This document shows, in pieces, positions 1 through 739 of a stretch of 9,470 nt of DNA (positions within the stretch are counted from its first letter, which is position 1; each line of letters begins with the position of its first letter). The position numbers and the translations under genes are program-made. Location: IMG/VR virus record IMGVR_UViG_2667527595_000023; one strand, written 5' to 3'. The DNA comes from a virus. Lineage: Monodnaviria; Loebvirae; Hofneiviricota; Faserviricetes; Tubulavirales. The notes under the pieces were generated by a model. That model saw only the letters and a list, made by a program, of their open reading frames with translations, made no database searches and was not told where the DNA came from.

Positions 1-739
1 GCTCAGGTGGTGGCAGTTCCGGTGGTGGTAACCCGGGCGGCGGCATACCAGTGGTGGTTCAGGTTCTGGCTCCGGTGGTTCATCCGGTAGCGGTGGCTCC
101 GGCTCGGGTTCCGGCGGCTCATCCGGCAGTGGTGGTTCAGGTTCTGGCTCCGGTGGTTCATCCGGTAGCGGTGGCTCCGGCTCGGGCTCCGGCGGTTCAT
201 CCGGTAGCGGTAGTTCAGGTTCAGGATCCGGTGGCTCATCCGGCGATGACAATGGCTGGCTTGATGGTATTTTGGGCTGGTTAAAAACAATATGGGTGTC
301 AGTGAATGATTTAAATAATGCTTTTTCTGTTTCTCAGGCTGATATGAATAATGCATTAAATTCACTGGACAATGGTATTAAAGATATTAGTCAGAATATA
401 GCTTCTTCTTTGCCTGATGGGGATTTCCCTTTAGGGGAGCTTTCGCATTACTTGCCAGGACAGGGAAGTGAGAGTCATGATAATAACAATTGGCTTACAG
501 TTAATATTGACAAACTGGTAAATACAAATAATGGAACTGCTCTTCCTTTTATTTTACAATTTAGCTTTGATCTTCCGTTGATTGGCGCTATTAATTTCAA
601 GATTGATACAAGCCATTTTGCAAAAGCTTATGACGATTATGTTCGTTCTGTTCTTGAATATGCTATTTATATGATAACCATGTTACGCGTTTTTGTTATT
701 TCTCGCCGTACATTATTTGAACGTGAGGTAAAACTCTGA
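1..739 (+). CDS. gIII: Attachment/minor coat protein pIII, 3' portion (Gly/Ser linker plus C-terminal membrane-anchor domain); 5' end outside window; possible frameshift near 45-51
   Basis: Frame 2 is open from 32 to the stop at 737-739 and encodes GSGSGGSS repeats followed by a C-domain ending in a hydrophobic anchor (AIYMITMLRVFVISRR). Stop overlaps the gVI start (TGATG). The frame entering from the window start, in register with the copy at 8352, shifts into a Val/Pro/Ala frame and stops at 282-284. Confidence 0.7.
53..208 (+). repeat. 78-bp in-frame tandem repeat (2 units) encoding the Gly/Ser linker of pIII
   Basis: Unit ggtggttcaggttctggctccggtggttcatccggtagcggtggctccggctcgggttccggcggctcatccggcagt occurs at 53-130 and, as a variant, at 131-208. 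Confidence 0.9.

Follow-up and report, generated by a model that had tools for sequence, protein, structure and literature searches.

An apparent frameshift in the gIII linker of an Escherichia coli filamentous prophage is probably a contig-end assembly artefact

The apparent frameshift at the start of the sequence analysed here is probably an assembly artefact of the contig end on which it lies, and it most likely hides an ordinary E. coli filamentous prophage gene that encodes an intact 451-aa pIII, in which case there would be no biological frameshift. This reading is drawn from the assembled sequence. The window, that is, the whole stretch of DNA under analysis (9,470 nt), corresponds to the entire contig CDRQ01000487.1 (1-9470) of the draft assembly GCA_000941195.1. 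It carries a complete filamentous-phage gene set, in which every phage gene other than gIII is intact, and both contig ends fall inside one gIII Gly/Ser linker, where both are anomalous.

Window positions 1-250 are a second copy of 8968-9297, and both copies belong to the gIII Gly/Ser linker. Three differences separate the start copy from the end copy: a G instead of an A at 35 (CCAGG to CCGGG), a change at 45-51, and one 78-nt unit fewer. The contig start (1-44, plus strand), which encodes the start of the linker (SGGGSSGGGNPGGG), is otherwise the same as 8968-9011. The flagged site (45-51, plus strand) stands directly before the first 78-nt linker unit and reads ATACCAG, or ATNCCAG in the record, in place of the AGTTCCGG present at 9012-9019 in the end copy and in all relatives, for a net loss of 1 nt; the string that crosses the site into the array is GGCATACCAGTGG. 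The first-pass annotation, comparing cataccag at 45-52 with 9011-9020, had placed three substitutions and a 1-nt deletion here. The difference does lie there and does include a 1-nt deletion, with the correction that the best alignment at 45-51 contains two substitutions, the third being the one at 35, outside that stretch.

In translation, the frame of the N-terminal domain reads ...GGNPGGG-IPVVVQVLAPVVHP... across the site and ends at a TAA stop (282-284), in agreement with the earlier statement that a gIII running in from upstream would shift into a Val/Pro/Ala-rich frame and stop at these positions. The Gly/Ser linker and the C-terminal domain, up to the TGA at 737-739, lie in the frame of positions 53, 56 and so on, one frame off that of the N-terminal domain. 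The printed sequence is thus broken in frame relative to intact homologues, and the 1-nt loss stands in the deposited record whatever the ambiguous base at 47 represents; the 34 nt ahead of the first difference are clean.

We compared the window with the CDRQ01000487.1 record and found only three mismatches, each an A in the window against an N in the record: 47, 2090 and 5341. The corresponding bases in relatives are T, G and C, and the apparent substitutions there are placeholders. The N at 47 falls within the flagged site, where the window text prints an A, so that one of the site's "substitutions" is an ambiguous call. An exact match to the secretin led to this record, which exact matching with pI and Rep missed owing to the Ns; the pI sequence led to L013 instead. 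Isolated Ns are likewise present in a sibling contig of a related draft assembly. Since position 1 is the contig end, the sequence upstream of the start copy, which the pseudogene reading needs, is absent from the record.

The N-terminal part of gIII lies at the other end of the contig (8352..9296, plus strand), where it begins at a TTG start (8352), encodes a putative signal peptide and runs into a linker of 3.5 units. The reconstructed pIII matches the Pfam family PF05357 (Phage_Coat_A, the g3p N-terminal domain) over residues 126-171 (E = 6.6e-9, 35.8 bits, cut-off 20.8), and the PHROG families of pIII are annotated as virion structural or attachment protein. As read from the translation, its N-terminus is signal-peptide-like (MIHFIIPLLFLFFSSFSFA/EE), and its C-terminus (..VLEYAIYMITMLRVFVISRRTLFEREVKL) looks like a hydrophobic anchor with a short charged tail behind it. 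The Gly/Ser linker between them is built of GGSGSGSGGSSGS over some 75 to 100 residues, and its coding DNA consists of 78-nt units. At the contig start, the tandem array (49..243, plus strand) has 2.5 units with a 39-nt sub-period, the unit number of the common 451-aa pIII allele, vs 3.5 units at 9019-9289. The linkers of relatives have 2.5 units (451-aa pIII, the usual form) or 1.5 units (425 aa), and a 3.5-unit linker was found in no other genome among the relatives compared. The C-terminal domain (251..739, plus strand), with its hydrophobic anchor (VLEYAIYMITMLRVFVI, then SRRTLFEREVKL), is 100% identical to that of the pIII of L013, the closest relative, and the window has no other pIII C-terminal domain than this one behind the "frameshift".

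The end copy had been described as complete; its gIII homology stops at 9297, where antisense tssM sequence begins. The view of the start copy as a gIII pseudogene depended both on that completeness, which does not hold, and on an upstream continuation that is missing from the record. Because the two breaks lie in the same linker, the start "gIII copy" is most likely the redundant contig end of the gene whose N-terminal part is found at the other end. When ATACCAG was repaired to AGTTCCGG and the N-terminal part (8352-8967) was prefixed, the result was a 451-aa protein 100% identical to the pIII of L013.

This protein resembles the gene III protein of the Ff phages (M13/fd) and the g3p of IKe / I2-2 in its Phage_Coat_A N-terminal domain and long Gly/Ser linker, in a putative signal peptide and a C-terminal domain with an apparent hydrophobic anchor and short basic tail, and in the position of its gene between the major coat gene and gVI; the gene order around gIII is that of inoviruses (major coat gene, gIII, gVI, gI, gIV). 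Unlike these proteins, it has a single linker of ~100 residues, built from 78-nt tandem units in strain-dependent number, and recognisable similarity to them is limited to the Phage_Coat_A stretch of ~45 residues.

The differences from intact genes are unique to this contig and clustered at its start. Relative to L013, a contig of a sibling draft assembly with an intact gene, the window differs at 35, 46 (a gap), 47 and 50 and at no position in 51-2089; the first later difference, after 2,039 identical nt, is at 2090, itself an N in the record. With all four events in positions 1-50 of 2,089 nt (P ~3e-7 under uniform placement), the clustering is far beyond chance. Every one of the 17 gIII copies that have this N-terminal domain (11 related loci) reads AACCCAGGCGGCGGCAGTTCCGG, and compared with these copies CATACCAGTGG and AACCCGGGCGGCGGC are confined to the window start. 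The flagged variant was not found in 5,426 complete E. coli genomes, in which the best match to window 1-130 was at most 96.9%, and the exact 32-mer spanning the frameshift had no match in IMG/VR, GTDB representatives or JGI metagenomes. No exact-sequence record was found for the frameshifted, repaired or long-linker product (299, 451 and 477 aa, respectively), a result that is uninformative because L013 demonstrably encodes the 451-aa form.

Several other sources of the variant were considered. Gene conversion from another gIII allele was rejected, as no allele in any locus carries it. The 8-mer CATACCAG, shared with the ribosome-binding region of gIII (8333-8340), is expected ~0.3 times by chance and was taken as a coincidence. 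The change at 35 falls on the centre of a CCAGG Dcm motif, a known site of nanopore (ONT) errors (PMC6591954); only one of the seven such motifs is altered, giving no sign of a systematic platform error, and indel noise is absent from the remainder of the contig, which leaves this as a weak hint only.

A real pseudogene is unlikely on these data. Under this reading, the strain would carry at least two tandem phage copies, one of which suffered a complex mutation where the linker array begins, losing 1 nt and gaining two or three substitutions. The pIII of that copy would be cut to a secreted N-terminal fragment of 299 aa with a Val/Pro/Ala-rich tail and no anchor, and full pIII would have to come from another copy. 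The shifted frame and the stop at 282-284 do stand in the deposited sequence, and the region is mutable, since real genomes differ in their number of linker units, with a pIII of 425 or 451 aa. Relatives occur in tandem and heterogeneous arrays, as YpfPhi occurs in arrays of two to four copies (PMC4266046), and the tandem arrays of this family are real (L001) and can hold non-identical copies (L016), so a genuinely damaged copy is biologically possible. Against it, the site contains an N and is terminal in the contig, with nothing of the N-terminal part adjoining it, the four clustered changes are accompanied by zero other decay in 2 kb, and the variant is in no other genome or contig searched. 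Moreover, the other gIII copy has no C-terminal domain, so that at face value the strain would have no working gIII and otherwise perfect phage genes.

An assembly artefact accounts for the same observations as follows. The contig, from a fragmented draft E. coli assembly made of short contigs, would hold ~1.03 unit lengths of an inovirus genome that was present as a tandem prophage array or as a circular replicative form, and the assembler would have broken it at both ends in the 78-nt tandem array of the gIII linker. The first 51 nt would then be a poorly supported consensus at the place where unique sequence enters the array, and site 45-51 is the exact point of that entry. The canonical array entry reads ..GGCAGTTCCGGTGGTGG and the internal unit boundaries read ..CATCCGGCAGTGGTGG, and the window, with ..GGCATNCCAGTGGTGG, has pieces of both. 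We infer that the consensus error arose by the mixing of repeat reads: those from the array entry and those from the internal boundaries were probably merged into ATNCCAG, with one base lost and one ambiguous call. The site lies at a contig terminus, adjoins a repeat, includes an ambiguous call and is unique to one assembly, and it resembles the contig-end and repeat-collapse errors of short-read drafts in its terminal position, repeat edge, ambiguous base, unequal unit counts and restriction to a single assembly. That a single 330-nt repeat should carry two lesions, each at a contig end, fits assembly trouble more readily than two independent mutations. The alternative that the first-pass annotation had itself offered, a sequencing or assembly error in a low-complexity repeat, is therefore the one favoured by the contig end, the N at 47, the array entry, the uniqueness of the variant and the 2 kb of identity.

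A more particular version of events, which we consider improbable, is that two gIII alleles or phage genomes (prophage or replicative-form variants with 2.5- vs 3.5-unit linkers) were collapsed at the contig start, so that neither the printed sequence nor a single "error" would describe a real molecule. Isolated Ns such as those at 47, 2090 and 5341, where relatives have T, G and C, are the pattern expected of collapsed polymorphism, the unit numbers differ between the two contig ends, and two phage variants occur in one array in a sibling assembly. On the other hand, three ambiguous positions in 9.5 kb are few, a mixture alone does not explain the loss of 1 nt, and from the assembly this version looks the same as a plain consensus error, of which it is in practice a sub-case.

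That the change is functional, with programmed ribosomal frameshifting in the linker offsetting the -1 change to give full-length pIII, is scarcely conceivable. Several frames of the GC-rich repeat are open, which is all that speaks for it; by reading the sequence, we found no slippery heptamer or downstream structure at 45-60, an Rfam scan of the window returned nothing, and every relative encodes the protein in a single frame.

At the far end of the contig, the gIII linker joins abruptly to a 173-nt fragment of the E. coli type VI secretion (T6SS) gene tssM (ImcF-related; 9298..9470, minus strand), 99.4% identical to E. coli T6SS genes, which runs to the contig end. At the junction (9297/9298), the linker ends in ..TCATCCGGCGATGACA and is followed by antisense tssM/ImcF sequence (TCATCCGGCCAGTTG..); the joint has zero overlap, yet the 9-mer TCATCCGGC is present on both sides. 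The gIII frame stays open to the contig end, and tssM is truncated, ending in ..NWPDDVIAG and a stop. The 35-mer spanning the gIII/tssM junction had no match in IMG/VR, GTDB representatives or JGI metagenomes. H19/H76, where homology also ends at 9297, was set aside as a related prophage with a divergent C-terminal domain and not this junction. We had taken the 173-nt host tail as proof of a chimeric read, an argument that is weakened by L013, which runs ~140 nt into genuine host sequence flanking dif. Short host tails on phage contigs are normal in this set of assemblies; the tssM tail may therefore be supported by reads, and not everything at the contig ends need be noise. The junction may be chimeric or may reflect a genuine rearrangement.

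If both lesions were real, a phage genome of more than unit length (a rolling-circle concatemer or array copy) would have been illegitimately joined in its gIII linker to tssM, and a neighbouring copy would be truly frameshifted, a combination to which we give very little credence. The frameshifted copy would then make an anchor-less periplasmic N-terminal fragment of pIII, by which the receptor or TolA could be blocked and superinfection by phage prevented. Such a prophage would be defective and yet immunising, and it would also inactivate a type VI secretion system.

Downstream of gIII, the plus strand encodes a gVI-like minor coat protein of 119 aa (739..1098; phrog_1944), a gI / Zot-like assembly ATPase of 400 aa (1116..2318; the record has its second N at 2090) and the gIV secretin of 402 aa (3105..4313). 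The pI protein has 400 aa in the window, L013 and L016 vs 403 aa in most relatives, owing to an in-frame 9-nt difference (at window 1995); L016 has both forms in one array, and thus two phage variants in tandem. Between gI and gIV lies a 339-nt tandem repeat (2332..3066, 2.2 copies), separate from the finding discussed here and present in more than 5 copies in L013. It matches small mobilizable plasmids at 92-97% over ~70 nt, and the ~57 nt at the start of each unit resemble the ColE1/pBR322 sequence just downstream of ori. The repeat is possibly a single-strand initiation or primosome site that would act as a putative complementary-strand origin.

Beyond gIV, we identified by eye a dif-like XerC/XerD site (4366..4395, plus strand) composed of AGTGCGCATAA, TGTGACACGCG and TTATGTTGAAA, whose N11 centre is longer than that of dif; a search for dif within 3 mismatches found no occurrence in the window. 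A 66-aa ORF (4685..4885, minus strand; phrog_2503) lies in a regulatory module (4625-5254, from the dif-like site to Rep) that is swapped among relatives, which have HTH proteins of 62, 108 or 153 aa in place of the minus-strand ORF, a type of variation like that of the immunity region of CTXphi (rstR). The replication endonuclease follows on the plus strand (5260..7260; 666 aa, Phage_GPA type, with the third N at 5341), and four further ORFs lie on the same strand (7291..8291), at 7291-7716 (141 aa), 7721-7861 and 7854-8024 (both small), and 8049-8291 (80 aa, major-coat-like).

The close relatives of this phage, at 95-99% identity, reside as prophages in few E. coli genomes: the module from Rep to gVIII is present in 48 of 5,426 complete genomes (~1%), even with a distant blastn search. 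None of 50,697 deposited phage records gave a nucleotide match, and the deposited phages nearest by Rep protein are the Vibrio phages fs2 and VFJ, which also have a Rep of the Phage_GPA type, at only 29-30% identity. The relatives are located on the chromosome at dif in tandem arrays. In L001 (strain 100416), two identical units follow one another in tandem, flanked by hipBA and the ydeQ/R fimbrial genes, and the array ends at the equivalent of window 4380, inside the dif-like site. Tandem arrays are likewise present in L008-L011, other genomes hold longer arrays, and L016 has non-identical copies within one array. No integrase was found among the unit's ORFs of 60 aa or more, and none of nine ORFs scanned had an integrase domain. 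With no integrase found in these ORFs and a candidate dif-like site, the phage resembles the filamentous prophages that integrate at dif through XerCD (CTXphi, YpfPhi, CUS-1 and Vibrio fs2/VFJ), with its own use of Xer being putative. A tandem-array lifestyle at dif has been described for YpfPhi, CUS-1 and CTXphi (PMC4266046), and the arrays of the relatives beside hipBA liken them to YpfPhi and CUS-1 in lifestyle. A related filamentous prophage (L015, NZ_AP022261.1 3174368-3188623) lies away from dif, between hcxB and ybiB, and directly adjoins an IS110-family transposase gene. In its gIII the linker is the shared one and the C-terminal domain a different one, which suggests a modular gIII and an alternative way of integration.

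If the frameshift were true, it would add one more defective copy to a filamentous prophage array and be of modest interest. As it stands, the case serves mainly as a caution: short-read assemblies break where tandem repeats encode a Gly/Ser linker, contig ends in such repeats can mimic pseudogenes and gene fusions, and the window text here concealed an N as an A at the very site in question. Independently of the frameshift question, the phage family to which this genome belongs is under-described, being present in ~1% of complete E. coli genomes with no close deposited phage.
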